Assembly: GCA_003243275.1 (NCBI GenBank) | Contig: QFQR01000008.1 | Span: 11,618 to 75,617 of the forward strand | Length of the DNA: 64,000 bases | Reading direction: 5' to 3' | Source of the DNA: Leifsonia xyli | Lineage (GTDB): Bacteria; Actinomycetota; Actinomycetes; Actinomycetales; Microbacteriaceae | Shown: positions 7,009 through 28,803 of the stretch, one piece after another | Layout of the letters: every line of letters begins with the position of its first letter | Numbering within the stretch: position 1 is the stretch's first letter | Translations under genes and position numbers: made by a program | Notes under the pieces: generated by a model | Database searches by the model: none | The model's input: only the letters and a program-made list of their open reading frames with translations | Told to the model about the DNA's origin: nothing

Positions 7009-7091
7009 CCGTCGGGTATCACCGCGCCATCCCGAGACTCCTCTCCTCTGCGGGCCCCCGCTCGCAGCCCCCGGAGAGGAAGGCCTCGATC

Positions 7092-10705: not shown

Positions 10706-11593
10706 TCAGAGCGGAGGCCGCCCGCCGATCATGGTGACGGCCCTCGCGGCGACGCGGACGCCCGTGCGGGCCGCCTCGAGCGGATCACGCGTGCGCACCC
10801 AGCTGTCGAGGAAGCCCGCGGTGAACGCGTCACCCGCACCCGTCGGGTCGACCATGCGGGTGGCGGGCGCCGGCACGTGCACGGGCGCGGCGCCGTCGGC
10901 GACCACGAGCACACCCTCCGAGCCGAGCGTCATCGCGACCACCGGGAATCGCCGCCCGAGCGCGCGCGCAGCCGCCTCCGGGTCGTCGACCCCGGCGAGC
11001 TGCTGCGCCTCGGCACGGTTCGGGAACAGCACCGTCGCACCCTCGATCGCCGCGGCGAAGGCGGCGACCCCGAAGTCGGCGACATAGCCGGTCGATGCGG
11101 GGTTGACCGACACCGGCACACCGGCCGCCGCCGCACGCGCGAGAAGCTCGCGCGTGCGGGTCGCGCCGAAGCCGTCGAGGATCGAGTACCCGCTCACGTG
11201 CAGCACGGCGGCGTCCGCGAGCAGCGCATCGGTGACCGCGTCGACCCGGAGGGCCGCGTTCGCACCGCGCTCGGTGAACATCGAGCGCGTCTCGCCGTCG
11301 ACCAGGATGATGATCGTGCCGGTCGGGATGCCGACCTCCACCTGGAGGTGCGGCTCGACACCCGCCTCGCGGAACTCCTGCTCGTGCGCGGCCGCATCCT
11401 GCACGCCGACCGCACCGACGAAGTCGACCGCCGCGCCCCGTGAGCCGAGCCAGACCGCGGTGTTCGCGGCGGAGCCCCCAGGACGCGGGCGGATGCTCGC
11501 GCTCGTGTCGGTGTCGGGCCGCACCGGACTGCGCGGCACGACCACGATGTCGTTGATGACGTCGCCGACCACGACGATGCGGTCAGCCGTCAT
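10706..11593 (-). CDS. psuK: PfkB-family carbohydrate kinase, probably pseudouridine kinase
   Basis: Ribokinase-family motifs GGSAANTAV and DPTGAGDAF. Start is ATG 11593 (MTADRIVVVGD...), which overlaps the psuG stop (ATGA). The substrate is inferred from that coupling. Confidence 0.75.
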   Translation of the reverse strand: MTADRIVVVGDVINDIVVVPRSPVRPDTDTSASIRPRPGGSAANTAVWLGSRGAAVDFVGAVGVQDAAAHEQEFREAGVEPHLQVEVGIPTGTIIILVDGETRSMFTERGANAALRVDAVTDALLADAAVLHVSGYSILDGFGATRTRELLARAAAAGVPVSVNPASTGYVADFGVAAFAAAIEGATVLFPNRAEAQQLAGVDDPEAAARALGRRFPVVAMTLGSEGVLVVADGAAPVHVPAPATRMVDPTGAGDAFTAGFLDSWVRTRDPLEAARTGVRVAARAVTMIGGRPPL

Positions 11594-12507
11594 CGACGGG
11601 ATGCGAGCGTCGCCCACGCCGTGGCGACATCCGCGGCGACGCGCACATTGTTGCGGGCCAGGTCGAGGTTCACCTCGAGGCTCTTGCCGCCCGAGGCCTC
11701 CACGATGTAGCCGAGCAGGAACGGCGTGACGGCCTTGCCCCGCACGCCTGCCTCCTCCGCCGCGGCGAACGCGGTGGCGAGCACGCGGTCGTGCTCGGCG
11801 GGCTCCCACTGCTGCTCGAGCGGGATCGGGTTGGCGAGCACGATGCCGCTCGTCGAGCCGAAGGCGTCGCGCGCGGCCATCGCGGCCGCGACCTGCTCCG
11901 CCGATTCGACCTTCCAGTCGAGCTCGTAGCCGGATTCGCGCAGCCAGAAGGCCGGGAACATCGTGGTCCCGTAGCCGATCACCGGCACGCTGAGGGTCTC
12001 GAGGCGCTCGAGCGTCGCCGGGATGTCGAGCACGCTCTTGACCCCCGCGCTCACCACGGTGACGGGCGAGGAGGCGAGCGTCGTGAGGTCGGCGGACTCG
12101 TCGAAGGTGGAGGATGCGCCGCGGTGCACGCCGCCGAGCCCCCCGGTCGCGAACACCCGCACCCCGGCGAGCCCCGCGAGGTAGGCGGTGGCGGCGACGG
12201 TGGTGGCGCCCGAGCGGCCGAGCGCTGCGAGCACGGGCAGGTCGCGCACGGATGCCTTGGCGAGGTCCTCTTCGGCGATGCGACGCACGCCATCCGCATC
12301 CAGCCCGATCTGCGGCACCCCGTCGAGCACCGCGATCGTGGCGGGGGTGACACCCCGCGCCCGCAGGATCTCCTCGAACTCGATCGCGGCCTCGTGGTTG
12401 CGGGGGCGCGGGAGGCCGTGGCTGATGATGGTCGACTCGAGTGCGACGACGGGACGGCCGTCGGCGAGTGCGTCGGCGACCTCGGAGGAGAGCTGGAAAG
12501 CGGTCAT
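11590..12507 (-). CDS. psuG: pseudouridine-5'-phosphate glycosidase
   Basis: Colinear PsuG signatures: VALESTIISHGLPRP, ATGGLGGVHRG and VVSAGVKSVLD. Confidence 0.9.
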   Translation of the reverse strand: MTAFQLSSEVADALADGRPVVALESTIISHGLPRPRNHEAAIEFEEILRARGVTPATIAVLDGVPQIGLDADGVRRIAEEDLAKASVRDLPVLAALGRSGATTVAATAYLAGLAGVRVFATGGLGGVHRGASSTFDESADLTTLASSPVTVVSAGVKSVLDIPATLERLETLSVPVIGYGTTMFPAFWLRESGYELDWKVESAEQVAAAMAARDAFGSTSGIVLANPIPLEQQWEPAEHDRVLATAFAAAEEAGVRGKAVTPFLLGYIVEASGGKSLEVNLDLARNNVRVAADVATAWATLASRR

Positions 12508-13137: not shown

Positions 13138-14841
13138 TTACGACACGCGCTCGCGCGCCGCGGGCAGCACCTTGCCGGGGTTGAAGTTGTCGCCCGGGTC
13201 GACCGCGGCGAAGAGGCCCCGCATCACCGCGACGCCCTCCGGCGAGATGTCCTGCTCGATCCATGGCGAGTGCTCGAGGCCCACACCGTGGTGGTGCGAG
13301 ATCGTGCCGCCGTTGTCGACGAAGGCCTGCTGGATGGCGCCCTTCACGATGTCGTAGTCGGCGAGCATGTCGTCGCCCGCGACGAAGGCGAAGGTGAAGT
13401 AGAGGCACGCGCCCGAGTGGTACGAGTGCGAGAGGTGGCACATGACCCAGCCCTTGCGGCCGATCTGCGCGTAGGCGCCCTCGGCCGCCGCGACGACCGC
13501 GTTGTAGAGCGGGAGCAGCTTCGACCACGGGGCCGCGGTCTCCGACACATCGCCCGCCGCGCCCCGGTCGAGCAGGAAGTCGCGCAGGTACGGGGTGTCG
13601 AACTTCTTCTGGTCGTAGAGCACGCCGGGGCCGGTGCCGACGCCCATGCCGCCGTGCTTCTTGACGATCGCGCCGACGAGCTTCTTCTGCCGCGCCACGT
13701 GCTGCGGCGAGCCCTCGAAGCCGATGAACGAGAGGCAGATGTCGGTGAGCGTCCAACCCTTCGACCGCATGAGCCCCGGCAGCACCTTCTCGGCGAGCAC
13801 CGCATCCATCCCGTGCCGCGCCTTGCTGGTCGCCATCGAGAAGCCCGTCTCGCGGGAGTCGGAGACGCGCGTGATGATGGGGCTCGCATCCGATTCGGAG
13901 ATCGCCTGCATGGCCGAGAGCCCCGCCTCCCAGTTCGGGAAGAAGTACGCCTGGATCTCACGCAGCTCGGCGACCCGGTGCACCTGCGCCGTGATCTCCG
14001 TGATCACGCCGAGGCGACCCTCCGAGCCGACGATCATGTCGCGCACGCTCGGGCCGGTCGACGCCGAGGGGATCGCCGGGATCACGAGCACGCCGTCGCG
14101 ATCCGGATGCGAGGGCCGCACCACGCGGATGCCGCGCACGATCTGCGCGATGTCACCGTACTTGTCCGACTGCATGCCGGAGGATCGGGTGGCCGCCCAG
14201 CCGCCGATCGTGGAGTGGGTGAAGCTGTCGGGGAAGTGGCCGATCGTCCAGCCCTGCGCGGCGAGCTGCGCCTCCAGGTGCGGACCGAGCGCGCCGGCCT
14301 GGATGCGGGCGAGGCCGGAGTCGGTGTCGATGCCGAGCACCCGGTTCATGCGGCCCATGTCGAGCGACACGACCGTGCGCGTCTCGCCGGCGATCGGTTC
14401 GAGACTGCCCGCGATGTTGCTGCCGCCGCCGAAGGGGATGAGCACCGCGTCCTCGGCGACCGCCGCATCCACGACGCGCTGCACCTCAGCCTCGTCGGCC
14501 GGATAGACCACGACGTCGACGGCACGCTCGATGCGACCCGAGCGGATGCGCACCAGGTCGCGCAGGCTCTTGCCGTAGCTGTGCACGACACGCTCCATGG
14601 CATCCGTCGTCACGAAGTCCTCGCCGACGATGCCCGCGAGCACGGCCACGAACGCGGGGGACGCGGCGGAGTCCGCCAGGTCGAACTCCTCGAACGCCGG
14701 CTGCTGCGCGGTGCCCGCCGTCGCGAGGTCGAGACCGACCGCCTGCAGCACGAAGGGGGCGAAACCGGGCTTGTCCTCGTGGTGGAAGCCGACACCGTCG
14801 ATGCCCCAGCCCCACCACTTCATGTGCTCGACGTCGGTCAC
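13138..14841 (-). CDS. FAD-linked alkyldihydroxyacetonephosphate synthase (AGPS) homologue
   Basis: The N-terminal KWWGWG matches the RWNGWG of animal AGPS. FAD_binding_4 region: VVYPADEAEVQRVV...LIPFGGGSNIAGS and GHFPDS..STIGGWAATRSSGM. AGPS-specific loops: SETAAPW, GACLYFTFAF and NGGTISHHHGVG. GTG start at 14841 follows AAGGAGAG and overlaps the upstream stop (GTGA). Confidence 0.85.
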   Translation of the reverse strand: MTDVEHMKWWGWGIDGVGFHHEDKPGFAPFVLQAVGLDLATAGTAQQPAFEEFDLADSAASPAFVAVLAGIVGEDFVTTDAMERVVHSYGKSLRDLVRIRSGRIERAVDVVVYPADEAEVQRVVDAAVAEDAVLIPFGGGSNIAGSLEPIAGETRTVVSLDMGRMNRVLGIDTDSGLARIQAGALGPHLEAQLAAQGWTIGHFPDSFTHSTIGGWAATRSSGMQSDKYGDIAQIVRGIRVVRPSHPDRDGVLVIPAIPSASTGPSVRDMIVGSEGRLGVITEITAQVHRVAELREIQAYFFPNWEAGLSAMQAISESDASPIITRVSDSRETGFSMATSKARHGMDAVLAEKVLPGLMRSKGWTLTDICLSFIGFEGSPQHVARQKKLVGAIVKKHGGMGVGTGPGVLYDQKKFDTPYLRDFLLDRGAAGDVSETAAPWSKLLPLYNAVVAAAEGAYAQIGRKGWVMCHLSHSYHSGACLYFTFAFVAGDDMLADYDIVKGAIQQAFVDNGGTISHHHGVGLEHSPWIEQDISPEGVAVMRGLFAAVDPGDNFNPGKVLPAARERVS

Positions 14842-15593
14842 GGTCTCTCTCCTTCGGGCGACGGATGCGCACCAGGCGCCTGGCCGGGTGACGCGCTCAG
14901 GATACGGGGTGCGTAGGCCTCGTGCAGGTGAACGATCTGGGCGCGCACCCGCCCGATGAAGGCGGCGGAGGTCTCCCCCTCCTCGGCACGCATCGGCTCG
15001 CCGAAGACGACGCCGACCGGCAGCCGCCCGCGCTTGGGCCAACTGCTGCCGCGAGGGTGGGCGATGCCCGCCCCGACCAAGGCGATCGGCACGATGGGCA
15101 CCTCGGTCGCGATCGCGAGGGATGCCGCCCCCGGCTTGAAGTGCCCCATCTCGCCCGTCTTCGAGCGCGTGCCCTCCGGGAACACCAGCAGCGGCACACC
15201 GCGTTCCAGCAGCGACTTGGCCGACACGCTGCGCGGGTTCACCCCGCCGCGGTCGACGGGGAAGGCGTTGAAGAACAGGGCGGTGAGCCCGCGGCGCCAC
15301 CACACGTCGAAGAAGTAGTCGGCTGCCGCGCCCGCGGCCAGGTAGCGCGCGTGCTTGCGCGGCAGCGCGCCCAGCACGAGCGGGGCGTCGAGGTGGCTCG
15401 AGTGGTTCGCGACGGCGACGAAGGCCTTCGGCAGGCCGCGCAGCTTCTTCGCCCCGACGACGGTCACCTTGACGGTCGACCAGGCGACGGGCTTGAGGAT
15501 GCCGCGCTGCGCCACGAAGCGCGCCGCCGCCTGGGTCTTCGACGTGAACCGGTCACGGCGCGGAGTCCCGGGGCCCGCGGCGGTCGTCACCAT
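14838..15593 (-). CDS. PlsC-type lysophospholipid/(DHAP) acyltransferase
   Basis: Acyltransferase blocks NHSSHLDA (HX4D) and FPEGTRS. It is translationally coupled to the AGPS homologue. Confidence 0.85.
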   Translation of the reverse strand: MVTTAAGPGTPRRDRFTSKTQAAARFVAQRGILKPVAWSTVKVTVVGAKKLRGLPKAFVAVANHSSHLDAPLVLGALPRKHARYLAAGAAADYFFDVWWRRGLTALFFNAFPVDRGGVNPRSVSAKSLLERGVPLLVFPEGTRSKTGEMGHFKPGAASLAIATEVPIVPIALVGAGIAHPRGSSWPKRGRLPVGVVFGEPMRAEEGETSAAFIGRVRAQIVHLHEAYAPRILSASPGQAPGAHPSPEGERP

Positions 15594-15602
15594 GCAGCCA
15601 GG

Positions 15603-16373
15603 CTAGTCCCGGTGCCGGGAGCTGGAGATCTTTCGTGAAACCCAGCGCACCGTGCGCGGGGGCAGGTGCCGCAGCCACCAGGTGAGGAATCGGTAGCGCA
15701 GCGACGGGATCGAGACGGCGCGACCGCGTTCGGCATCCCGCAGGCAGGCAGCCACGAGGTCGTCGGCCGACAGCCACAGCCAGGAGGGGATCGAGGAGGT
15801 GCGGATGTCGGCGCGCCCGTGGAACTCGGTGCGCACCCAACCGGGAAGCAGGGCGGTGACCGTGACGCCGGTGCCGACGAGGGCGTTCGAGAGGCTCTCG
15901 GAGTAGACCCGCATCCAGGCTTTGATCGCGGAGTAGAGGCCCATCGAGAGGTAGCCGGCGACGCTCGCGACGTTGATGATGGTGCCGTGGCCGCGCTCGC
16001 GCATCCCCGGCACCACGGCGGCGGCGAGCACGAGCGGGGTCTGCATCATCACCTGGAGGGCGTCGGCCGCCTCGGCGAGGTCGGGGTCGGCGAGGCGCGA
16101 GGTCATGCCGTAGCCCGCGTTGTTGACGAGCAGCTCGACGGGTCGCGAGGCGTCGGCGAGGCGTGCCGCGACGCGGGCGGCATCCGCCGGGTCGCCGAGG
16201 TCGGCCGCGATGGTCTCCACCTGACGGCCGGTGGCACGCAGTTCGGTGGCGATCTCCTCGAGCCGGGATGCGGTGCGCGCGACGAGCACGAGGTCGTAGC
16301 CGCGGGCGGCGAGGGCGCGCGCGAATGCGGCACCGATGCCGGCCGTGCCGCCGGTGACGAGAGCGATGGGCAT
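15603..16373 (-). CDS. classical short-chain dehydrogenase/reductase (SDR)
   Basis: TGGTAGIGAAFA cofactor motif, NNAG, and catalytic YSAIKAW (YxxxK). Start is ATG 16373 (MPIALVTGG), 9 nt upstream of the acyltransferase gene. Confidence 0.85.
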   Translation of the reverse strand: MPIALVTGGTAGIGAAFARALAARGYDLVLVARTASRLEEIATELRATGRQVETIAADLGDPADAARVAARLADASRPVELLVNNAGYGMTSRLADPDLAEAADALQVMMQTPLVLAAAVVPGMRERGHGTIINVASVAGYLSMGLYSAIKAWMRVYSESLSNALVGTGVTVTALLPGWVRTEFHGRADIRTSSIPSWLWLSADDLVAACLRDAERGRAVSIPSLRYRFLTWWLRHLPPRTVRWVSRKISSSRHRD

Positions 16374-16410
16374 GGGGTTCACCCTACGGTTCGTCGCGCA
16401 GCCCGTGCGG

Positions 16411-16779
16411 TCACACCTCGACGACGTCGACGTAGCGCCGCGCGGTGCGCGCGAGTTTGCGGTCGGCGGTGAGGAGCGGCGCACCGAGCGCCTCGGCGAG
16501 CGCCACGTAGGCCGCGTCGAAGGTTGTGATGTCGTGGCGGAGCTGCCAGATGCGCGGGAGCAGCAGGATGTGGTCGCGTCGCTCGATCTTCAGCCCTGCG
16601 TAGATCTCGATGCCCTCGCGGGCGGCCGATGCCGTGATCGCCCCGCTCAGCATCAATCGCCTCCAGACGCCGAACACCTCCAGGTCGACGACCGAGGGTG
16701 CGACGATGTCGCGCCCGTCGAGCACCGGCTGCGACGCGAGCAGATGCTCGACGAAGACACTCGCATCGACGACCCGCAT
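16411..16779 (-). CDS. vapC: PIN-domain toxin VapC
   Basis: MRVVDASVFVEHL... gives the N-terminal acidic residue, and ...FDAAYVALAE...LLTADRKL gives the PIN acidic residues. The start overlaps the vapB stop (ATGA at 16779). Confidence 0.8.
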   Translation of the reverse strand: MRVVDASVFVEHLLASQPVLDGRDIVAPSVVDLEVFGVWRRLMLSGAITASAAREGIEIYAGLKIERRDHILLLPRIWQLRHDITTFDAAYVALAEALGAPLLTADRKLARTARRYVDVVEV

Positions 16780-17048
16780 CAGTACTCGCGAGGGCCGAGG
16801 CCCTCGTCCCAACCCGGCATCTCCTCATCGCGCGCTTCGTGCAAGGCGCGCAGGATCGTCTCCCGGTCGACCCGCGGCAGCCGCCGCTCGGCCTCCGCGC
16901 GGATCTCGGCCATCGTGCGGTACTGCACGAGCTTCGCGAGCTCGCGCGCGACGTAGTCCGACAGCGTCATCCGCTCGGCGGCGGCGCGCTCCTTGAGCTT
17001 CTCGTGCACCTCGTCGGGGAGGTTCCTCACCTGCAGCATGCGGGCCAT
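16779..17048 (-). CDS. vapB: ribbon-helix-helix antitoxin VapB (FitA/Arc-like)
   Basis: MARMLQVRNLPDEVHEKLKERAAAERMTLSDYV is the typical RHH N-terminus of plasmid-stability-type antitoxins. Confidence 0.75.
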   Translation of the reverse strand: MARMLQVRNLPDEVHEKLKERAAAERMTLSDYVARELAKLVQYRTMAEIRAEAERRLPRVDRETILRALHEARDEEMPGWDEGLGPREY

Positions 17049-17058
17049 CCCGGCAGAC

Positions 17059-17075
17059 TACATGTGCTCCACATG
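17059..17075. promoter_or_regulatory. candidate VapB operator: two ACATGT palindromes 11 bp apart
   Basis: ACATGT occurs at 17059-17064 and 17070-17075 (one helical turn apart), 11 nt upstream of the vapB start, in the divergent intergenic region. Confidence 0.3.
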
Positions 17076-17219
17076 TTGTGCCATCGCAATCTGTGGATAA
17101 CATTGGCTGGCAGGCTGCGGTGAGGGGTCGCCGAAGGCACCAACGGAATGCCCGGTGCGCTACGGTCGAATCCGGGCGCGCCCTTCGCCCGCGCCCGCCG
17201 CAGGAAGGCCCACCACCCC

Positions 17220-18026
17220 ATGACCCCCCGAGCAACGACGACGTCCGAGTCGTTCGACGTGCGGGAGTTCGCGGCCACCGCCCGAGGCAGCCACCGCGCC
17301 GAGATCGACGGCGAGGCGATCGCGCGCGCGGGCCTCACGCCCGACGCCGTCCGGCTCATCCGGGTGCTCCGCGATCTGGAACGCGGCACCCTCGACCGGA
17401 TGCGCAACCTGCTCGTCACCGCCACCCACAAGGATGCGCGCGTCACCGCGTTCCTGGCGACCTGGGCGTTCGAGAAGTACTGGGTGGCCGACGCCCTCGA
17501 CGCCGTGCTGGGCGCGGTCGGCGCCGACACCGAGCCGCTCGCCGGCCCGCGTCGGCGCACGGCGACCGAGCGCGCGGAACGCCGCGGCCCCGTCCGACGC
17601 GCGCTCTCCGGCAACCTCGCCGGTGCCGACATCGTCGCCGGCCACGTGACCACGGGGCTGGTCGACGAGCTCATCACCCAACAGGCCTACCGCCGTCTCG
17701 GCGAGGCGGCCACCTCGCTCACCTCGCTCGCCACGAGCCTCATCGCCCTGAAGGACCGGCACGTGCGCTTCCTCGCCGAGGAGGCCGAGCACAAGCTCGC
17801 CGCATCCGCACGCGCGGTACGCCTCGCGCGCAAGGCGCTGGCGCAGGCCGCCTGGCCGGTCGGCGCGAGCGAGATCCCGGATGCCGACCGCAGCTTCTTC
17901 GAGACCTTCGTCTTCGGCGACGAGGAGGGTCGCACCGCGGCCGCGCGCATCGGCGAGCGCCTCGCCGCGCTCCCCGGCCTCGGCACCGCACAGGGCGCAT
18001 CCCTCGTGGCGAGGCTCGTGCCGTGA
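17220..18026 (+). CDS. ferritin-like four-helix-bundle protein, degenerate paralogue of 20352-21146 (metal ligands lost)
   Basis: It aligns by eye with the downstream paralogue: AVRLIRVLRDLERGT vs TLRTLRYMCDIEYHT, TWAFEKYWVADAL vs MWNREEFWHGEAL, and LIALKDRHVRFLAEEAE vs IAKQETRHVAFYASQAR. The start could be ATG 17220 or ATG 17148. Confidence 0.65.
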   Translation: MTPRATTTSESFDVREFAATARGSHRAEIDGEAIARAGLTPDAVRLIRVLRDLERGTLDRMRNLLVTATHKDARVTAFLATWAFEKYWVADALDAVLGAVGADTEPLAGPRRRTATERAERRGPVRRALSGNLAGADIVAGHVTTGLVDELITQQAYRRLGEAATSLTSLATSLIALKDRHVRFLAEEAEHKLAASARAVRLARKALAQAAWPVGASEIPDADRSFFETFVFGDEEGRTAAARIGERLAALPGLGTAQGASLVARLVP

Positions 18027-20335
18027 CCCCGAAGCGCGCACGGACCGAACTCGGCGACGCCCACGTCTTCCTCACGGGCGGCACCGGCTTCGTCGGGCAG
18101 GCCGTGCTCGAGCGGCTGCTCACCACCCACCCCGACACCACGATCTCGCTGCTCGTTCGCACCAAGGGCTCGGCGGCCGGCGACGACCGGCTGCGCACCC
18201 TGCTGCGGAAGCCCGTGTTCCGCGCCTGGCGGGAGGCCGTGGGCGACGCGGGCGTCGAGGATGCGGTGGCCCGCCGCATCTGGATCGTCGAGGGCGGACT
18301 CGGCTCGGTGCCCGAGCTGCCGGGCGACATCGACGTCGTCATCCACTCGGCGTCCACCGTCTCCTTCGACCCGCCCATCGACCAGGCCTTCGACACCAAC
18401 GTCGGCGGGGCGATCGGGCTCTACGAGGCGCTGCGCGCATCCGGCTCGACCCCGCACGTCGTGCACGTCTCCACCTGCTACGTCGGGGGCCTGCGGAAAG
18501 GCGTCGTGCCGGAGGCGCGGCTCGGCCACGAGGTCGACTGGCGCGCCGAGTACGCGGCCGCGCTCTCGGCCCGCGAGCGCGTCGAGATGCTCTCGCGCCA
18601 ACCCGCGCAGCTGCGTGAGTTCATGGACCGCGCCCGCGCCGTGCACGGCAAGGAGGGCCCACAGTCGGTCGCGCGAGCGAGCGAGGAGGCCCGCGTCGCC
18701 TGGGTGACGAGCGCCCTCGTGGATGCCGGCCGCACCCGCGCCGAATCGCTCGGCTGGACCGACGTCTACACCCTCACCAAGGCCTTCGCCGAGCGCGCCG
18801 CCGAGGAGCTGTGGGCGGGGACAGGCGGGTCGCTCTCCGTCGTGCGCCCCGCGATCATCGAGTCGGCGCTCGCGCATCCGTTCCCCGGCTGGATCGACGG
18901 CTTCAAGGTCGCCGACCCGCTCATCCTCGCCTACGGACGCGGGCTGCTGCCCGAGTTCCCGGGGCTGCCCGACAGCGTGCTCGACCTCATCCCGGTCGAC
19001 TACGTCGTGAATGCGATCCTCGCCGCAGCCGCCAACCCGCCTGAGGGCGAGCCCGAGTACTTCCACGTGAGCTCGGGGGCCTCCAACCCGCTGCCGTTCC
19101 ACCGGATGTACGAGAACGTGCGCGAGTACTTCACCGCGAACCCGATGCCCTCACCGGGCGGGGGCGAGGTCCGCGTGCCCACCTGGCGCTTCCCCGGTGG
19201 GCGCACGGTGGAGCGGGCGCTGCGCCGGGCGCGCGTGCGCCTGGAACGCCGCGAGCGCCAGCTCTCCCGCGGACGCTCGACCGCCCGCACCCGCGCCCAG
19301 CTCACCGAGCTCGCCACCAAGAGATCCGACCTCGAGACGCTCGAGAACTTCGCCGAGCTCTACCGCGCGTACGTGCAGACCGAGATCATCTTCGACGACA
19401 GCAACACGCGCGCCCTGCACGCCGCGATCCCGAAGAAGCTGCAGGCCGACCGCGGCTTCGACCTCGCCGCGATCGACTGGGAGGACTACCTGCAGCGGGT
19501 GCACTTCCCCGCCATCACGACCCTCACGCGCGCGTTCTCGCGGCGTCCCGAGGCGAGCACCACCGAGGGCCGCCCCGCGAAGGCGCTCCCGGAGCGCACG
19601 GATGTGGTGGCCGTCTTCGACCTGGAGGGCACGGTCGTCGACACCAACCTCGTCGAGCAGTACCTGTGGGTGCGCGCGGCCGGATGGGGCTGGACGGCCT
19701 GGCCGGCATCCGTCGTCTCGATCCTGGCGCGACTGCCCGGCTACCTGCGCGCCGAGCGCCGGGACCGCGGCGAGTTCATCCGCACCTTCCTGCGCCGCTA
19801 CGAGGGGATGCCGGAGGCGCGCCTCGAGAAGACGGTTCACGGCGGCTACGCCGACCGGGTGCTCGGGCACACCGCCACCGCGGCGCTCGAGCGGGCCGCC
19901 GCCCACCGGGCCGCCGGGCACCGCACGGTGCTCGTGACCGGGTCGATCGGCACCCTCGCCGAACCCGTCGCGGCCGCCTTCGACGAGGTGGTCGCGGGTG
20001 CCATGCACGTGAAGGACGGCCAGCTCACCGGCTACCTCGCACGCCCGCCGCTCGTCGACGAGGCCCGCGCCAACTGGCTGCGCCTCTACGCCGAGCGCGG
20101 CGGCTACGACCTCTCCGCCTCCTACGGCTACGGTGACAGCCACGCCGACCTGGTGTGGCTCGAGCTCCTCGGCCACCCGCACGCCGTCAACCCCGACAGC
20201 CGCCTCGCCCGCGAGGCCGGACGCCGCCGCTGGCGCATCGACTCGTGGAAGAGCGGGTCGCGCGCGGCGAACCGTGCTTTGATGGCCGAAGGCACCGCAT
20301 CCCGCACCCAGGAAGGAGCGGGCGGCTCCCGCTGA
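18023..20335 (+). CDS. fusion protein: fatty acyl-CoA/ACP reductase (FAR, NAD_binding_4) domain plus HAD-IB phosphatase domain
   Basis: N-terminal VFLTGGTGFVGQAVLERLL, STCYVGG and YTLTKAFAE (YxxxK) mark the FAR domain. C-terminal VAVFDLEGTVVDTN (HAD motif I) and GYGDSHADLVWLE (motif IV) mark the HAD domain. The GTG start at 18023 overlaps the upstream stop (GTGA). Confidence 0.85.
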   Translation: MTPKRARTELGDAHVFLTGGTGFVGQAVLERLLTTHPDTTISLLVRTKGSAAGDDRLRTLLRKPVFRAWREAVGDAGVEDAVARRIWIVEGGLGSVPELPGDIDVVIHSASTVSFDPPIDQAFDTNVGGAIGLYEALRASGSTPHVVHVSTCYVGGLRKGVVPEARLGHEVDWRAEYAAALSARERVEMLSRQPAQLREFMDRARAVHGKEGPQSVARASEEARVAWVTSALVDAGRTRAESLGWTDVYTLTKAFAERAAEELWAGTGGSLSVVRPAIIESALAHPFPGWIDGFKVADPLILAYGRGLLPEFPGLPDSVLDLIPVDYVVNAILAAAANPPEGEPEYFHVSSGASNPLPFHRMYENVREYFTANPMPSPGGGEVRVPTWRFPGGRTVERALRRARVRLERRERQLSRGRSTARTRAQLTELATKRSDLETLENFAELYRAYVQTEIIFDDSNTRALHAAIPKKLQADRGFDLAAIDWEDYLQRVHFPAITTLTRAFSRRPEASTTEGRPAKALPERTDVVAVFDLEGTVVDTNLVEQYLWVRAAGWGWTAWPASVVSILARLPGYLRAERRDRGEFIRTFLRRYEGMPEARLEKTVHGGYADRVLGHTATAALERAAAHRAAGHRTVLVTGSIGTLAEPVAAAFDEVVAGAMHVKDGQLTGYLARPPLVDEARANWLRLYAERGGYDLSASYGYGDSHADLVWLELLGHPHAVNPDSRLAREAGRRRWRIDSWKSGSRAANRALMAEGTASRTQEGAGGSR

Positions 20336-20351
20336 CGCCGCCCGGACCGCC

Positions 20352-21146
20352 ATGGCATTCGACATCGACAAGTACACGACGAACTCGACGGCCGTCGGGT
20401 GGGACGACCTCGACTTCGACGTGTTCGACGAGCATCCGCTGCCCGAGAGCACGCTGCGCACCCTGCGCTACATGTGCGACATCGAGTACCACACCACGTG
20501 CTACCTGCGCGATCTGCTCACCACCCCCTCGCACAACGAGCCCGAGGTGGGCGCCTTCATGACGATGTGGAACCGCGAGGAGTTCTGGCACGGCGAGGCG
20601 CTCGCCGCCGTGCTGGCGAAGCACGGCGTCACCGTCGACTACGACATCCTCAAGGCCACCCGGCTGAAGCTCGGCTGGAAGGACCGCCTCGACCCGATCA
20701 AGCAGTCGATCATGGGCGGGCTCGTCGGCAACGACTTCGTCGCCGTGCACATGTCGTGGGGCGCTGCCAACGAATGGTCGGCGAACGCCGCCTACCTGCG
20801 GATGGCGGAGCTCGAAGGCAACCCGGTGCTCGCCGAACTGCTCAAGCGCATCGCGAAGCAGGAGACCCGGCACGTGGCCTTCTACGCATCCCAGGCCCGC
20901 GACCGCCTCAAGGACTCCAAGAAGGCGCAGAAGATCACCCGCTTCGCGCTCTCCAAGTTCTGGGGTCCGGTCGGCTCGGGTGTGCAGGATGACGCCGAGG
21001 TGACCCACGTCATGACGCAGCTCTTCGGCGGGCCGGAAGGACGCAAGCTCATCCGCGACGTCGACTCGCACATCGCGAAGCTCCCGGGCATGGCAGGTCT
21101 CACGATCGTCGAGGACTCGCTCGAGAAACGCGGCATCGCGGCGTGA
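20352..21146 (+). CDS. ferritin-like di-iron oxygenase/desaturase-family protein
   Basis: A complete E...EXXH...E...EXXH ligand set is spaced as in di-iron carboxylate proteins: CDIEYH, NREEFWH, ANEWS and KQETRH. Confidence 0.8.
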   Translation: MAFDIDKYTTNSTAVGWDDLDFDVFDEHPLPESTLRTLRYMCDIEYHTTCYLRDLLTTPSHNEPEVGAFMTMWNREEFWHGEALAAVLAKHGVTVDYDILKATRLKLGWKDRLDPIKQSIMGGLVGNDFVAVHMSWGAANEWSANAAYLRMAELEGNPVLAELLKRIAKQETRHVAFYASQARDRLKDSKKAQKITRFALSKFWGPVGSGVQDDAEVTHVMTQLFGGPEGRKLIRDVDSHIAKLPGMAGLTIVEDSLEKRGIAA

Positions 21147-21826
21147 TCCCCGCACCGCTGCGCACCGCGGGGCTCTGGCTGGACGTCGCCATCTACCTCG
21201 TGCTGCCGCTCGTCGGGCTCTTCGTGTGGGGCTGGGACTGGCGCCCGATCGTGTTGCTCTACTGGCTCGAGAACATCACCATCGGCGGCACCGTGTTCAT
21301 CTCGCTCGTGCGCCGCGCGCGCGGTGGCGACGGCGTGCAGGCCGGGCTGCCTGCCGCGTTCTTCCTCGTGCACTACGGCATCTTCACCTTCGTGCACGGG
21401 GTGTTCGTGATCGTGCTGATCAACCTCGTGCCGGTCATGACCGACACCCCCGGCGCTCCGTTCAACCCCTGGTGGCTGCTGCTGGCCTGGCTCGTGACGA
21501 CGCTCATCCAGTGGTGGCTGGCGCTGCGGACGAACCCGCCGCGCATCGACGGGATCGCGAAGGCGTACGGTCGGGTCATCGTGCTGCACGTCGTGATCCT
21601 CGGCGCGGTGTGGCTGATCGCGGCGTTCGGGCTGCCGTCGATCGTCGCGGTCGCACTCGTCGTGCTGCACGCCGTGATCGACGTCATCGGTCTCGTCGTC
21701 ACCTCGCGGATGGCGAGCGGCCGCTACCGCTGGGAGGCGACCGGCACCGGCGCCTGGATGCTGCGCCGCATCCCGGATGCGGATGCGGCTGCGGCGCAGC
21801 CGCCCGCGACGCCGCCGACGGGCTGA
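21143..21826 (+). CDS. multi-pass membrane protein (DUF6498-like)
   Basis: About six hydrophobic helices with membrane-embedded His residues (FFLVHYGIFTFVHGVF, VIVLHVV, VVLHAVID). The GTG start overlaps the stop of the di-iron gene (GTGA). Confidence 0.7.
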   Translation: MIPAPLRTAGLWLDVAIYLVLPLVGLFVWGWDWRPIVLLYWLENITIGGTVFISLVRRARGGDGVQAGLPAAFFLVHYGIFTFVHGVFVIVLINLVPVMTDTPGAPFNPWWLLLAWLVTTLIQWWLALRTNPPRIDGIAKAYGRVIVLHVVILGAVWLIAAFGLPSIVAVALVVLHAVIDVIGLVVTSRMASGRYRWEATGTGAWMLRRIPDADAAAAQPPATPPTG

Positions 21827-21842: not shown

Positions 21843-22484
21843 TCAGCCCCGTGGCGCGCGGATGCCGCGGATGAGCAGGTAGCCGAGCATCCAGAGCTCG
21901 CCGACGGTGGCCGGCAGCACCATCACCTCGCCGAGCCAGGCGGGGGTCGCCGGCGCGGCGATCGCGAGGAAGGCGTTCAGCACGTACCCGCCGCCTCCCG
22001 CGACGAGCACGATGCCGAGCGCCCGCGGCATCCGGGAGGTGACGAGCACGAAGCTTCCCATCGGGATCAGCCACAGGCCGAAGAAGAGGGCCCCGGCATC
22101 CCAGAACGCGTCGGCGATCCCGAACAGCACGGGGAAGGCGTCGTCGTCCACGCCGAGCCGGGCGGCCGCCGTGATGAGTGCCGCACTTGCGAGAATCGCT
22201 GTAGCGTTTGTCATCCCCAGCACCGCCACCGCGAACGCCTCGACCGGACGATCGCGCCGGAACAGTGCGTAGAAGCCGATCGCGGCGGCGGCCTGGCTGA
22301 CCACGACGAGCAGCTCGAGCGCGAGCAGCAGGTGGATGCCGTCGCCGGAATCACGGGCGGTGGGCCGCACCAGCAGGAAGCCGAGCATGCCGACGACGGC
22401 GAGCGCGAGGTAGGCGCCGCCCGTGGCGCGGGCGATGCGACGGTCGGTGCGGATGCGGGTGAGCGTTGGCGTTGCGGTGGTCAT
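21843..22484 (-). CDS. DUF4386-like membrane protein
   Basis: Hydrophobic product ...ARATGGAYLALAVVGMLGFLLV...LWLIPMGSFVLVTSRMPR...ELWMLGYLLIRG. The start is uncertain: ATG 22484 or ATG 22499. The GTG at 22517 in the ORF track lies in AT-rich promoter-like DNA. Confidence 0.65.
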   Translation of the reverse strand: MTTATPTLTRIRTDRRIARATGGAYLALAVVGMLGFLLVRPTARDSGDGIHLLLALELLVVVSQAAAAIGFYALFRRDRPVEAFAVAVLGMTNATAILASAALITAAARLGVDDDAFPVLFGIADAFWDAGALFFGLWLIPMGSFVLVTSRMPRALGIVLVAGGGGYVLNAFLAIAAPATPAWLGEVMVLPATVGELWMLGYLLIRGIRAPRG

Positions 22485-22510
22485 GCGGATTCCCATCATG
22501 TAAAAAATTG

Positions 22511-22538
22511 TTGACACCGCACGCTAAGCGGCTACGCT
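22511..22538 (+). promoter_or_regulatory. candidate sigma-A type promoter for 22575-23227
   Basis: TTGACA (22511-22516), 16-nt spacer, then TACGCT (22533-22538, fits TANNNT). It sits about 35 nt upstream of ATG 22575, which has a GGGAGG RBS. Confidence 0.35.
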
Positions 22539-22574
22539 CGCAATGTCAAGAAAATTTGACACACGGGAGGCCAG

Positions 22575-23009
22575 ATGAACTACGCACAACGCAACACCTG
22601 GACCCAGCTCGTCGCCATGAGTCTGGGGGTCGCGATCTACCTCGCGATCGTGCTGCCGCAGCTCGCCACCCGCGCGCCGGCCGAGGTCGCCTGGCAATGG
22701 CCCATGATCTGGACCTGCGTCGGCGCGATCGCCGCCTCGATCGCCTCCAGCATCCTGTGGGGCATCGTCGCCGGCATGATCGACCGCGACGAAGAGCACG
22801 CCGCCGACCACCGCGACCGGGAGATCGGATGGTACGGAGACCGCGTCGGGCAGGCGTTCGCGATCGCCGGCGGGCTCGGCGCGCTCGTGCTCACCATGCT
22901 GCAGGCGCACTGGTTCTGGATCGGCAACGCGCTCTACCTCGGCTTCTTCCTCGCCGCCTTCGCCGGCGCCGTCGCCCGTCTCGCCGCCTACCGCCGCGGG
23001 ACGCCCTGA
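22575..23009 (+). CDS. small membrane protein (DUF2178-like, 4 TM)
   Basis: 144-aa hydrophobic product. The stop overlaps the start of an XRE HTH gene (TGATG), which is the usual pairing for this family. Confidence 0.65.
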   Translation: MNYAQRNTWTQLVAMSLGVAIYLAIVLPQLATRAPAEVAWQWPMIWTCVGAIAASIASSILWGIVAGMIDRDEEHAADHRDREIGWYGDRVGQAFAIAGGLGALVLTMLQAHWFWIGNALYLGFFLAAFAGAVARLAAYRRGTP

Positions 23010-23227
23010 TGGTCAAACCCACCCGCGTCACCAACACCATCCGCGCGACCCGCGAGACGGCGGGGCTCACCCAGGCCGAGCTGGCACGGCGGATCGGGGT
23101 CACCCGGCAGACGCTCATCGCCATCGAGCAGGGCAGGTACTCGCCGACCCTCGAGCTCGCGTTCCAGCTCGCCCGGGTCTTCGGTGTGCCGCTCGAGGAG
23201 CTGTTCGCCTACCCCGACGAGCGCTGA
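23009..23227 (+). CDS. XRE-family helix-turn-helix transcriptional regulator (72 aa)
   Basis: IRATRETAGLTQAELARRIGVTRQTLIAIEQGRYSPTLELAFQLARVFGVPLEELF is a canonical Cro/C1 HTH. Confidence 0.8.
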   Translation: MVKPTRVTNTIRATRETAGLTQAELARRIGVTRQTLIAIEQGRYSPTLELAFQLARVFGVPLEELFAYPDER

Positions 23228-23314: not shown

Positions 23315-23860
23315 GTGACCGCGCCGCGCCCCACCACGAAGGACGCCATCCACCGGGCCGCCGCGAGGCTCTTCCCCCTGCACGGCTACGCCGGAACCTC
23401 GGTACGCGACATCGCCGCCGAAGCCGGCGTCGACCCGGCGCTCGTCATCCGCCACTTCGGGTCGAAAGAGGAACTGTTCCTCGAGATCATGCAGCTCGAC
23501 GAGGAGACGCAACCGCTGCTCGACGGTCCGCTCGATCAGCTCGGCGAGCACTTCATCGACTTCGTGCTGAGATCGGGCGAACAGGTGCGCGGGGTGTTCC
23601 TCGCGCTCATCCGGGCCAGCGATTCCGAGGGGGTGGCACCGCGCCTGCGCGAGGTGCACGACGCGGCGTTCGTCACACCGCTGCTGTCGCGGCTCGAGGG
23701 TCCGGATGCCGAACTGCGCGCACGACTCGCGGCCGCGCTCGTCGGCGGGCTGCTCTACAGCCTGTGGGTGGTCGGCGACGAAGCGCTGCTCGCCACCGAC
23801 CGCACCGAGCTCGTGCGCCGCTACGGCACCCTGCTGCAGGGGCTCGTCACGCCCCGCTGA
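23315..23860 (+). CDS. TetR family transcriptional regulator
   Basis: N-terminal HTH: IHRAAARLFPLHGYAGTSVRDIAAEAGVDPALVIRHFGSKEELF. GTG start. Confidence 0.85.
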   Translation: MTAPRPTTKDAIHRAAARLFPLHGYAGTSVRDIAAEAGVDPALVIRHFGSKEELFLEIMQLDEETQPLLDGPLDQLGEHFIDFVLRSGEQVRGVFLALIRASDSEGVAPRLREVHDAAFVTPLLSRLEGPDAELRARLAAALVGGLLYSLWVVGDEALLATDRTELVRRYGTLLQGLVTPR

Positions 23861-23874
23861 GTGCGCATGTCGCC

Positions 23875-24900
23875 CTATTGCACCGCCCAGCCTCCGTCGG
23901 AGGCGAGCACCTGACCCGTCACGTTGGTGGCGTCGTCGCTCAGCAGCCAGGTGATGGATGCGGCGAGCTGCGCCGCCTCTGCGACCGGCGGGATCGTCTC
24001 GAGCAGCGCGCCCACCCGCTCCTGCCCGAGCTCGGAGGCGAAGCTCGCCTCGATGCTCGTGGCCACCGGGCCGGGAGCGACCGCGTTCACTCGGATGCCT
24101 TTGCCGGCATACATGAATGCGGTCGAGCGGGTGAGGCCCACGACGGCATGCTTGGACGTCGTGTAGGCGAGTCCGGCTGCCGAACCGCGCAGCGCCGCCT
24201 CGGAGGCGACGTTGACGATCGTGCCCCGACCGGCCTCGAGCATGAGCGGCAGCACGGCGCGCGTCAGCTTGAACATCCCGTTCACGTTGACGTTCATCAC
24301 GCGCTCCCACACGGCATCCGTCACCTCGTGCAGGGGGGTCATGTCGTCCATGATCCCGGCGACGTTCGCGAGCGCGTCGACGCGTGAGCCCGCCGCCGCG
24401 ACGATTGTGGCGATCGACGCATCCGCGGTGATGTCGCCCGCGACCGCGACGATGTCACCGGCTCCCTCGGCGAGGAAGTCGTCGAGGCGCTCCTGGGACA
24501 CGTCGACCGCGATCACGCGCCCGCCCTCGCGCGCGATGCGGGATGCCGTGGCGCGACCGATTCCGGCACCCGCGCCCGTGACGATGACCGTCATTCCGGC
24601 GAATCGGGACGGCGTGACGCGCTCGGCCCACCCGGCGGCGGGAGCGTCATCCGCCTCGTCCTCCTCGGCGGGAGCCGCGCCGCCGTTCACCTGGGCGACC
24701 ATCTCGTCGATGACGGCTTGCGGAAGCTGGCCTCGGCTGAGGGCGACGAGCCGCTGCAACGGGAACAGCTTGACGGGGGCGAGCGCCTTCTCCGTCTGAC
24801 CGCCCTGCGCGAGGAGGTCGCGCAGCAGCGGACCCCCGACCGGATGCTTGAGCCAGTCCCCGACGGAGCTCTTGGCGGTGAGCGGCTTGTCTGCGGCCAT
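23875..24900 (-). CDS. SDR-family oxidoreductase with ~105-aa N-terminal extension
   Basis: The SDR core has VIVTGAGAGIGRATA, NVAG and YTTSKHAVVGL (YxxxK). The preceding ~105 residues (MAADKPLTAKSSVGDWLKHPVGG...) are not part of the Rossmann fold. Start is ATG 24900. Confidence 0.8.
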   Translation of the reverse strand: MAADKPLTAKSSVGDWLKHPVGGPLLRDLLAQGGQTEKALAPVKLFPLQRLVALSRGQLPQAVIDEMVAQVNGGAAPAEEDEADDAPAAGWAERVTPSRFAGMTVIVTGAGAGIGRATASRIAREGGRVIAVDVSQERLDDFLAEGAGDIVAVAGDITADASIATIVAAAGSRVDALANVAGIMDDMTPLHEVTDAVWERVMNVNVNGMFKLTRAVLPLMLEAGRGTIVNVASEAALRGSAAGLAYTTSKHAVVGLTRSTAFMYAGKGIRVNAVAPGPVATSIEASFASELGQERVGALLETIPPVAEAAQLAASITWLLSDDATNVTGQVLASDGGWAVQ

Positions 24901-25039
24901 GATGAGGCGTCCTCTCCGACGGCCCCCTCGTCGGCACCGTCGGCACCAGTCTGCGCCCGCGACCCCGCGGGTGTCAACGGTGTTGACTCGGCTCAGGTGC
25001 CGTGCATCCGTCTCCGTCTGCGCATCCGTCTCCGCGCAT

Positions 25040-25097
25040 GTTGCGGTTTCGGCGCTGTGTGGCCGGCGCGCGGCCCACACAGCGCCGAAACCGCAAC
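25040..25097. terminator. long hairpin after the ace operon (probable terminator)
   Basis: A perfect 22-bp stem pairs 25040-25061 (GTTGCGGTTTCGGCGCTGTGTG) with 25076-25097. It is extendable by 4 pairs with a 1-nt bulge. It lies 12 nt downstream of the adk-like stop on the minus strand. Confidence 0.5.
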
Positions 25098-25108
25098 ACG
25101 GATGGGGC

Positions 25109-25663
25109 TCAGGCCGCGACGAGCGCCTCCCGGAGGCCGTCGAGGACGCGGTCGTGCACCTCGCCGACCCCGCCCACGGCGTCGAGCTCCACCACGCGCC
25201 CGCGGTAGTGCTCGAGCAGCGCCTCCTCGGTCGCGCGGAAGCCGGCGATCCGCCTCGCGACGACCTCGGGCGCATCATCCGCCCGGGCCCGCGCCGCCAG
25301 ACGCTCGGCGACCACCGCATCCGGCGCGTCGAAGTGCAGCGCGACGTCGAGCTCGGCGCCCCGGCTGCGCAAGAAACGGTCGAGGATGCGCGCCTGCGCG
25401 ACCGACCGCGGGAAGCCGTCGAGCACGAAACCCGCGGTGTGCGGCTCGAGCGCGTGCTCGACCATGCCCAGCACGAGGTGGTCGGGCACGAGCTCGCCGC
25501 GCTCGACGTGCGCGCGCGCCCCCTCACCGAGTGCGCTTCCGGATGCGATCTCCCCGCGAAGCAGCTCCCCCACGACCACCAGCGGAACACGCAGCCGCTC
25601 CGCGATGAGCGTGCCCTGGGTGCCTTTGCCCGAGCCCGGAGCGCCGACCAACACGATGCGCAT
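25109..25663 (-). CDS. adenylate kinase-like nucleoside monophosphate kinase (short, lid-less type)
   Basis: P-loop MRIVLVGAPGSGKGTQ, GFVLDGFPRSVAQA, and C-terminal RRIAGFRATEEALLEHY. The start overlaps the aceB stop (TGATG at 25661-25665). Confidence 0.8.
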   Translation of the reverse strand: MRIVLVGAPGSGKGTQGTLIAERLRVPLVVVGELLRGEIASGSALGEGARAHVERGELVPDHLVLGMVEHALEPHTAGFVLDGFPRSVAQARILDRFLRSRGAELDVALHFDAPDAVVAERLAARARADDAPEVVARRIAGFRATEEALLEHYRGRVVELDAVGGVGEVHDRVLDGLREALVAA

Positions 25664-27340: not shown

Positions 27341-28657
<1,317 letters not shown>

Positions 28658-28803
28658 GATCGGTTCCTTCCGATGTCGGTCCGCGGGATGCGGTGCGTGT
28701 CATCGATCGTGCGCCCCGCGCAAGGCACTTTTCCGGTCGAATGCGCGCGAAATTCCCAGCTTTTTCTCTTGAGCGCAAGAACCGACCCTGCGAGCATCGA
28801 CGC

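Follow-up and report, generated by a model that had tools for sequence, protein, structure and literature searches.

Relation to described ether-lipid systems

The aerobic synthesis of ether lipids and plasmalogens by bacteria is currently viewed as concentrated in Myxococcota. According to a 2025 preprint, which makes no mention of Actinomycetota, only 73 bacterial genomes encode the whole aerobic pathway with PEDS1, and Myxococcota account for 61 of these (bioRxiv 10.1101/2025.10.10.681575). In Myxococcus xanthus, MXAN_1674-1676 encode an NAD reductase, a fatty acyl reductase (FAR) joined to an acyltransferase, and a homologue of alkyl-dihydroxyacetone phosphate (alkyl-DHAP) synthase (AGPS), and this AGPS has been tied genetically to ether lipids (bioRxiv 10.1101/2025.10.10.681575; PMC13159169). 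We found a gene cluster that likely makes 1-O-alkyl glycerolipids by the AGPS route, judging from its sequences and their conservation, in a stretch of DNA from Leifsonia xyli, a soil-type actinobacterium of the Microbacteriaceae (GenBank assembly GCA_003243275.1, contig QFQR01000008.1, positions 11,618 to 75,617). We refer to this whole stretch of 64,000 nucleotides as the window, and number positions from its first letter.

The cluster has two divergent arms. On the minus strand, genes for a short-chain dehydrogenase/reductase (SDR), a PlsC-type acyltransferase and the AGPS homologue form one operon. The plus-strand operon encodes a ferritin-like protein (FerA), a FAR fused to a HAD-IB hydrolase domain (FAR-HAD) and a second ferritin-like protein (FerB), followed in the window by a DUF6498 membrane protein. 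An earlier note on this DNA had proposed these seven open reading frames (ORFs), and all seven are present at the coordinates and on the strands that it gave. The motifs that it quoted for AGPS, the acyltransferase and FAR-HAD all occur in the translations. Start/stop overlaps, read from the sequence as GTGA, were located where it had put them: between the PlsC and AGPS genes, between FerA and FAR-HAD, and between FerB and DUF6498. The remaining spacers are 9 nt between SDR and PlsC, and 16 nt between FAR-HAD and FerB.

The MXAN_1674-1676 operon is the closest known system. Like the present locus, it is a bacterial cluster in which an AGPS homologue stands together with an acyltransferase, a FAR and an NAD(P)-dependent reductase. 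However, the Myxococcus FAR is fused to the acyltransferase (FARAT), whereas here the FAR is fused to HAD-IB and a separate PlsC protein of 251 aa is coupled to AGPS. The Myxococcus reductase belongs to the epimerase/dehydratase family, while the one in the window is a classical SDR. The genes studied here also differ in forming two divergent operons and in including the FerA/FerB di-iron pair. No CarF/PEDS1 protein was seen among the scanned ORFs of the window.

The same four activities that are predicted here make up the eukaryotic peroxisomal route (GNPAT, AGPS, FAR1/2 and PexRAP/DHRS7B). The AGPS of the window is a clear member of its family and has kept both the HHH loop and the catalytic residues. 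The FAR resembles the eukaryote-type layout of NAD_binding_4 and Sterile domains, with a Sterile match below the cutoff. By contrast, the acyltransferase and the SDR appear from their sequences to be homologous to GNPAT and PexRAP at the superfamily level only. Of the ether-lipid steps, that of AGPS is well backed and that of FAR is supported by homology, whereas the roles of the other two enzymes come from context. Moreover, the genes studied here are clustered and translationally coupled, whereas the eukaryotic enzymes are targeted to an organelle. Eukaryotes have no counterpart of the HAD and ferritin-like parts, and they form the vinyl ether with the membrane desaturase PEDS1.

Alternative bacterial routes to ether lipids are the M. 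xanthus elbA-E genes (ElbD), which have FAR, acyltransferase and HAD-like functions, and the anaerobic PlsA/PlsR (Ger) system. Unlike the present cluster, both work without AGPS: PlsA/R act by anaerobic reduction of an ester that is already there, and ElbD is a large multidomain protein. We found no gene similar to ElbD or PlsA/PlsR in this region. PlsA/PlsR homologues are known in Propionibacteriales, and ether lipids reported from Actinomycetota include glycolipids of P. propionicum and PG-O of Cutibacterium.

AGPS homologues outside Myxococcota have only been counted in surveys, including in metagenome-assembled genomes (MAGs) of Actinobacteria (PMC13159169 among the sources). We found no paper on a characterised actinobacterial AGPS cluster, but subscription literature was thinly covered and this is weak evidence of absence. 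A search on Rv3107c, likewise of partial coverage, gave nothing relevant. The statement that no clustered, complete pathway has been characterised in Actinomycetota therefore agrees with what we found in the literature, but a comparable clustered operon was already known in M. xanthus, so the novelty is limited to Actinomycetota and to the FAR-HAD and FerAB additions. What appears to be new is that an AGPS-type cluster occurs in another bacterial phylum, that it is organised differently, and that it includes a FAR-HAD fusion and an uncharacterised di-iron pair. The core chemistry is known.

Identity of the flavoenzyme

The AGPS homologue (13138-14841, minus strand, 567 aa) binds flavin adenine dinucleotide (FAD) according to its Pfam domains, which are FAD_binding_4 (PF01565, E 3.7e-32) and FAD-oxidase_C (PF02913, E 2e-38). 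This architecture is generic, being common to AGPS and to 2-hydroxy-acid oxidases. The enzyme could accordingly be an oxidase or dehydrogenase of the D-lactate/glycolate type, in an operon that serves other redox or acyl metabolism, and GlcD is indeed its top NCBIfam match. However, the GlcD models stay far under their own cutoffs (114 bits versus 568, and 61 versus 897).

A comparison with all PDB chains using phmmer separates the two enzyme types widely. The Dictyostelium AGPS (2uuu) matches residues 60-558 with 370 bits (E 2.4e-109) and the guinea-pig AGPS (4bby) reaches 271 bits (E 2e-79), while the other VAO/PCMH flavoenzymes score far lower, the best being glycolate oxidase with 81 bits (E 6e-22) and D-lactate dehydrogenase with 79 bits. 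The best AGPS matches of the window protein are 87-92% identical to it, in line with a member of Microbacteriaceae close to Protaetiibacter.

The translation contains the motifs KWWGWG, SETAAPW, GACLYFTFAF and NGGTISHHHGVG. In the Dictyostelium enzyme, R352, R447 and Y508 are important by mutagenesis (PMC3509576). These residues align, with a chain index offset of 3, to R325 (in TRVSD), R420 (in PYLRDF) and Y481 (in GACLYF) of the window protein. The three residues and the HHH loop (H516-518) are invariant in an alignment with 12 homologues of 72-87% identity. KWWGWG aligns with KWNGWG of Dictyostelium, an instance of the N-terminal K/R-W-x-G-W-G motif that is specific to AGPS. In a motif scan of 160 loci, KWWGWG was counted in 109 of 111 and GACLYF in all 111.

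The earlier assignment to AGPS had appealed to family-specific features and not only to the generic fold, and full-length similarity, catalytic residues, HHH loop and KWWGWG agree on it. Because of the score separation and the conserved catalytic residues, it is strongly supported that the flavoenzyme is a true AGPS, predicted to convert acyl-DHAP and a fatty alcohol into alkyl-DHAP and a fatty acid. A 2-hydroxy-acid oxidase was rejected on the same evidence, including the conserved KWxGWG, the loop of the catalytic Tyr, the two Arg and the HHH loop, together with the GlcD scores, and we regard this alternative as extremely unlikely.

Acyltransferase and reductase of the minus-strand operon

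The acyltransferase (14838-15593, minus strand, 251 aa) matches PF01553 (E 2e-21) and contains the HX4D motif, as NHSSHLD, and the glycerol-phosphate-binding motif, in the sequence FPEGTRS. Its best NCBIfam match is an AGPAT domain, under that model's cutoff. The gene adjoins AGPS in all loci and is translationally coupled to it, with a -4 overlap in 83 of 111 loci. We infer that it encodes a DHAP acyltransferase, with the specificity for DHAP taken from context.

The first gene of the operon (15603-16373, minus strand, 256 aa) encodes a classical SDR (adh_short, E 2e-40). Its genomic context and synteny, and the analogy with PexRAP/DHRS7B and MXAN_1674, suggest that it would act as the acyl/alkyl-DHAP reductase. 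In five Protaetiibacter-like loci (L001, L003, L087, L091 and L094), the SDR and PlsC genes are separated by some 1-2.8 kb of additional DNA.

Conservation of the two arms

A pattern derived from an AGPS alignment was scanned against one genome per GTDB species, which yielded at least 510 relatives, and 80 loci were taken with 10-kb flanks. Synteny was determined by tblastn with each window protein and counted in the 65 genome loci that have at least 7.5 kb upstream of AGPS. In all 65, the SDR gene lies upstream of the PlsC-AGPS pair, in the same order as in the window. FAR-HAD is near AGPS in 47 of these loci, and FerA and FerB are both near it in 44. All six genes are found together in many genera of Microbacteriaceae, as well as in Streptomyces, Actinacidiphila and one of the two loci from Phytoactinopolyspora. 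The Fer genes are missing beside FAR-HAD in four loci, which include the two of Amnibacterium.

In the reciprocal test, metagenomes were scanned with FerB as the anchor. Thirty loci extended 7.5 kb or more upstream, and in 29 of them FerA, FAR-HAD, SDR, PlsC and AGPS accompany FerB in the same order. The exceptions are L160 and, among shorter loci, L153. Altogether, the gene order was seen in over 100 independent loci, more than chance would give. Co-conservation of the two operons had been set beforehand as a test of the ether-lipid proposal, and it was found from both ends (47/65 from AGPS, 29/30 from FerB). This reciprocal synteny argues that the arms function together. The arms are strongly linked, with the SDR-PlsC-AGPS trio as an autonomous core.

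AGPS proteins of Microbacteriaceae are 68-75% identical to those of Actinoplanes sp. NBRC 103695, a MAG of Solirubrobacteraceae and Streptomyces. Among our loci, only some Streptomyces species carry the cluster. The identity and the patchiness are compatible with horizontal spread in Actinomycetota, or with contamination of single records. One AGPS match (P0061) was labelled as belonging to Acidobacteria (locus L162, GCA_017884045.1) and was considered as a case of spread across phyla. Its gene order matches that of the window (FerB, FAR-HAD and FerA, then SDR, PlsC and AGPS, then Indigoidine_A-like, PfkB, photolyase and MarR genes). Since the flanking genes match as well, this contig is almost certainly a mis-binned piece of a Microbacteriaceae genome, and it was rejected as such a case.

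The distribution also bears on what kind of lipid is made. The product might be ether-linked and yet not a bulk membrane lipid, for example a free alkylglycerol, a storage lipid of the alkyl-diacylglycerol type, or a metabolite with a signalling or specialised role, in which case the HAD and FerAB steps would set the final structure. The phosphatase domain fused to FAR would fit such a product, as would the patchy occurrence in Streptomyces and the AGPS identity across orders, which is unusually high and consistent with an accessory trait that spreads horizontally. In M. xanthus, ether lipids are reported to act as developmental signals. On the other hand, the cluster is near-universal in the sampled genera of Microbacteriaceae and its chromosomal context is conserved (L162 shares the flanks of the window), so it resembles core lipid metabolism. 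No conserved regulator, transporter or further tailoring gene stands beside it. A product outside the bulk membrane lipids therefore seems rather unlikely to us.

The FAR-HAD fusion

FAR-HAD (18023-20335, plus strand) is a protein of 770 aa. Pfam and a structure match agree with the earlier description of it as a fusion of a FAR and a HAD-IB domain. The FAR domain (approximately aa 1-500, nt 18023-19522) matches NAD_binding_4 (PF07993, E 3e-44) and, weakly, Sterile (PF03015, 28.6 bits against a cutoff of 35.4). Residues 10-498 match the structure of a fatty acyl-CoA reductase (7eoz, E 3e-52). The nucleotide-binding and catalytic motifs are present as TGGTGFVGQ (GxxGxxG) and YTLTK (YxxxK), and TGGTGFVG and YTLTK are conserved across loci. 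These similarities support the prediction that the FAR domain reduces acyl-CoA or acyl-ACP to a fatty alcohol.

The HAD-IB hydrolase domain (approximately aa 525-740, nt 19595-20242, plus strand) matches PF12710 (E 1e-29, 104 bits against a cutoff of 27). Its motif IV, GDSHADL, is a canonical GDxxxD, and its motif I, FDLEGTV, is uniformly F-D-[LMF]-E-G-T-[VI] in about 100 loci. Among the best 120 of 3027 homologues of FAR-HAD, all combine NAD_binding_4 with HAD and most also have Sterile. Homologues are variously annotated as SDR, HAD-IB hydrolase or fatty acyl-CoA reductase. FAR-HAD overlaps FerA by 4 nt (-4) in 86 of 88 loci.

A HAD-IB-type domain is likewise fused to a glycerolipid enzyme in the AGPAT-HAD proteins (PF01553 and PF12710) of Rhodococcus and other actinomycetes. 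In that fusion, the PF12710 domain has been proposed to act as a lipid-phosphate phosphatase of actinomycetes, in place of phosphatidate phosphatase (PMC10351704). The fusion in the window differs in that the partner of the HAD domain is a FAR, and a phosphatase role is a proposal for either fusion. More speculatively, the HAD-IB domain might dephosphorylate alkyl(acyl)glycerol phosphate.

The ferritin-like pair

FerA (17220-18026, plus strand) and FerB (20352-21146, plus strand, 264 aa) are paralogues (29% identity, BLASTP E 7e-35). In FerB, the ligands E45, E77xxH80, E141 and E171xxH174 form a complete E/ExxH/E/ExxH set, which is invariant in 26 homologues and agrees with its earlier description as an intact di-iron ferritin-like protein. 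This is the ligand pattern of the soluble class-I di-iron carboxylate oxygenases and desaturases. FerA has no Pfam match, and at the FerB ligand positions it has K for E77, V for H80 and D for E171. Since it is a FerB paralogue with lost metal ligands, its label as a degenerate ferritin-like protein is correct. FerA is probably a non-catalytic partner subunit of FerB.

An AlphaFold2 model of FerB (mean pLDDT 84.7) is all-helical. Its top Foldseek matches are R2lox, DesA2 of M. tuberculosis (TMt 0.61), acyl-ACP desaturases of castor and other plants, and PaaA/PaaC. When a FerB profile was compared with the PDB, the best natural match was DesA2 (E 2e-3). In Pfam, FerB matches Rubrerythrin weakly and FA_desaturase_2 (PF03405) with 19.3 bits, below the cutoff of 22.7. 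Several members of the FerB family also match FA_desaturase_2 weakly, and one exceeds the cutoff. No informative domain fusions were found in the family, only these weak FA_desaturase_2 and Rubrerythrin matches. The family is small and separate, with 1202 clusters at 50% identity for E <= 1e-3.

FerB shares its ligand set on a helical bundle with plant stearoyl-ACP desaturase, DesA1/DesA2 and R2lox, and its best matches (DesA2, plant desaturases and R2lox) all bind long acyl chains. The FerA-FerB pair also recalls DesA2 and PaaC, which belong to pairs with one degenerate subunit. However, the matches of FerB to soluble desaturases and R2lox are weak. Membership in the soluble acyl-ACP desaturases was rejected, since FerB is below the Pfam cutoff and has no clear structural equivalence to them. 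Judging from sequence and model, FerB is a remote relative of soluble lipid-binding di-iron enzymes that falls outside any characterised family.

It is possible, though we hold it only tentatively, that FerAB desaturates or hydroxylates the alkyl chain. That FerAB forms a vinyl ether specifically is quite unlikely. Equally doubtful is the wider proposal that FerA and FerB are a soluble heterodimeric di-iron enzyme of ether lipids carrying out an O2-dependent chain step, such as 1'-desaturation, as a non-homologous replacement of PEDS1/CarF. No cluster protein matches the PEDS1/CarF (TMEM189) Pfam family.

The pair can be an independent unit, since two loci carry adjacent FerA and FerB genes without FAR-HAD or the AGPS trio (L160:9075-10795 and L153:3534-5230). 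In both, the pair lies downstream of a conserved run of genes, of which the first encodes a secretory lipase (PF03583) and others an ABC ATPase and a PLDc_N/SHOCT protein.

These two loci, where the pair stands alone beside a lipase gene, could be taken to mean that the plus-strand arm is a module for fatty alcohols, wax esters or hydrocarbons, and that its adjacency to AGPS is incidental. FAR would then provide alcohols or aldehydes for wax esters, or FerAB would lead to alkanes in the manner of the cyanobacterial aldehyde-deformylating oxygenase (ADO). ADO is also a ferritin-like di-iron enzyme encoded beside a reductase. In addition, 18 of the 65 genome loci have the AGPS trio without the plus-strand arm, and FAR enzymes feed wax-ester synthesis in many Actinomycetota (PMC10351704). 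However, the trio is adjacent and divergent in all but one of the 30 long FerB loci, which span at least three orders, and no wax synthase (WS/DGAT) domain occurs among the neighbours scanned. AGPS also needs a fatty alcohol, which is the predicted product of FAR. An ADO-like aldehyde decarbonylase was rejected for FerB, which has no ADO match in Pfam and no ADO structure in its Foldseek top 50. We therefore consider an incidental adjacency very doubtful.

Proposed pathway

In the AGPS route as we envisage it for this cluster, the minus-strand trio would carry out the three steps that are specific to the DHAP branch. The PlsC-type acyltransferase would convert DHAP into 1-acyl-DHAP, as its context suggests. 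On an intermediate bound to FAD, AGPS would replace the acyl chain by a fatty alcohol to form 1-alkyl-DHAP. The SDR, by context and by analogy with PexRAP and MXAN_1674, would reduce the ketone to yield 1-alkyl-sn-glycerol-3-phosphate. Housekeeping enzymes would then add the sn-2 acyl chain and the head groups, so that the product enters the general phospholipid and glycolipid machinery.

The plus-strand operon would supply and tailor the alkyl chain, with FAR providing the fatty alcohol. More speculatively, the HAD-IB domain might dephosphorylate its substrate to feed glycolipid or neutral-lipid synthesis, and FerB with its partner FerA might desaturate or hydroxylate the chain in an O2-dependent di-iron reaction, in the manner of PaaA/PaaC or DesA1/DesA2. 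Both arms would normally be expressed from one short shared promoter region containing the element TACGNTACGG, which in the window is split by a toxin-antitoxin insertion.

Several observations weigh against this pathway or against parts of it. The acyltransferase is of the short PlsC type rather than an orthologue of GNPAT, and could equally be an sn-2 acyltransferase. For the SDR, no NCBIfam equivalog reaches its cutoff. In Propionibacteriales, Microlunatus and an Actinoplanes record, the trio occurs with no FAR within 10 kb. An alternative FAR beside the trio was considered for Propionibacteriales and Microlunatus, but the 10-kb flanks are unrelated and hold no reductase; they contain pta-ackA, ABC permeases, xylose-isomerase-like genes, a histidine kinase and an MFS transporter. 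The HAD domain scores 90.5 with TIGR01490, under the cutoff of 98.3, and its motif I has Glu at Asp+2 in place of the usual second Asp. Enolase-phosphatase E1 likewise uses D-x-E-G-T, so the sequence is compatible with a plausible HAD activity. The Foldseek matches of FerB are all weak (E >= 2e-3, TM 0.45-0.62), so its chemistry is a guess. Finally, a literature search of partial coverage found no report of ether lipids in Microbacteriaceae or Streptomyces that carry the cluster.

Intergenic region and probable regulatory element

The two arms are divergent, as first described, but they do not face each other directly: a toxin-antitoxin module lies between them on the minus strand (16411-17048). 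It consists of a PIN toxin (16411-16812, Pfam E 7e-8) and an antitoxin with a FitA-like ribbon-helix-helix domain (FitA-like_RHH, 16779-17048, E 1.6e-7). The distance between SDR and FerA is about 775-850 bp here, compared to mostly <200 bp in relatives. The module stands outside the pathway and splits the divergent promoter region.

We identified a conserved TANNNT-type element by comparing loci. In 53 of 79 related intergenic regions, the 10-nt sequence TACGNTACGG keeps a constant distance of 7 or 12 nt to the SDR start codon, and in the 2.34 Mb of all loci it occurs only 61 times. In one clade of Microbacteriaceae, the element is a perfect palindrome, CGCTACGG-N3-CCGTAGCG. Read on the SDR strand, it presents a TANNNT -10 hexamer 7 nt upstream of the ATG, an arrangement that points to a leaderless mRNA of the operon. 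The opposite strand reads as TACGAT or TACGGT hexamers directed toward FerA. From its sequence and position, TACGNTACGG is probably a pair of overlapping divergent promoters (-10 boxes), an operator, or both.

The window has two degenerate copies of the element, which flank the toxin-antitoxin insertion. The first is a promoter-like element with a -10-type TAGGGT (16381-16391, minus strand), 7 nt ahead of the ATG of the SDR gene, so that here too the mRNA may be leaderless. The second, CGCTACGGTC, has a -10-like TACGGT and lies upstream of FerA (17158-17167, plus strand). It is followed by a Shine-Dalgarno sequence, AGGAAGG (17202-17208), and the ATG at 17220. FerA had initially been started at 17148, which is likely too early; the ATG at 17220 is preferred because a Shine-Dalgarno sequence precedes it, as in relatives, and the promoter-like element would fall inside the longer ORF. 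A scan for sigma-70 promoters and intrinsic terminators between 12900 and 22100 found none, with a consensus that is unsuitable for high-GC actinobacteria.

In eight Streptomyces and Actinacidiphila loci (L027, L028, L031, L033, L035, L047, L053 and L058), the intergenic region is 290-590 bp long. Instead of TACGNTACGG, it contains repeated TGTGACAC / GTGTCACA inverted repeats, a sequence difference that suggests that these loci may be under a different regulator.

The DUF6498 gene and surrounding genes

The gene after FerB encodes a multi-pass membrane protein of the DUF6498 family (21143-21826, plus strand; PF20108, E 1.4e-28). The earlier note had counted it with the plus-strand operon, and it is indeed present, but it is not a conserved member of the cluster. 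It follows FerB only in the closest relatives, namely some Protaetiibacter-like loci (L001-L005, L081-L086, L088 and L092), and is absent elsewhere. It is a lineage-specific accessory outside the conserved cluster. The idea that it is a conserved, His-rich desaturase of the pathway was rejected given this restriction to the nearest relatives.

The G+C content is about 71% across the window. Directly downstream of AGPS are genes for a PfkB-family kinase and an Indigoidine_A-like protein (10706-12507, minus strand), a pair of the pseudouridine kinase/glycosidase type. A photolyase gene (9356-10702) and a MarR regulator gene (8919-9359) lie beyond this pair. The same flank of PfkB, Indigoidine_A-like, photolyase and MarR genes is found in L162 and is unrelated to lipids. 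Further away, the plus-strand region of the ORFs at 6726-8690 and 4924-5610 includes a calpain-family cysteine protease domain (PF00648, E 2e-18), which is uncommon in bacteria, and a membrane protein of the SfLAP (sulfolipid-1-addressing protein) family.

On the other side, the genes downstream of the cluster encode a DUF4386 membrane protein, an HTH_3 regulator, a TetR regulator and a second SDR, in the intervals 21843-22517 (minus strand), 22466-23227 (plus strand), 23315-23860 (plus strand) and 23875-25590 (minus strand). A glyoxylate-shunt locus is located about 4 kb from the cluster, with neighbouring genes for malate synthase at 25663-27321 and isocitrate lyase at approximately 27341-28699. 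An HTH_3-domain regulator (28660-30264) is divergent to these two genes.

Implications

The cluster offers a concrete and testable set of ether-lipid genes in aerobic Gram-positive bacteria that are culturable and genetically tractable. In it, the three steps specific to DHAP travel as one operon, and an unstudied ferritin-like pair and a FAR-HAD fusion are tied to the AGPS pathway. The cluster may also bear on the origin of the ether lipids of Propionibacteriaceae, since the trio is present in other genera there, although PlsA/PlsR could also explain these lipids. If FerA and FerB do replace PEDS1/CarF, many aerobic Actinomycetota (Microbacteriaceae and some Streptomyces) would make plasmalogen-type or oxidised ether lipids, by a route that would be fully soluble and coupled to FAR. 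If the assignment of the cluster to ether-lipid synthesis is true, the “eukaryotic” AGPS route would have a wider range, which would bear on its evolutionary origin and provide new enzymes for making ether lipids.

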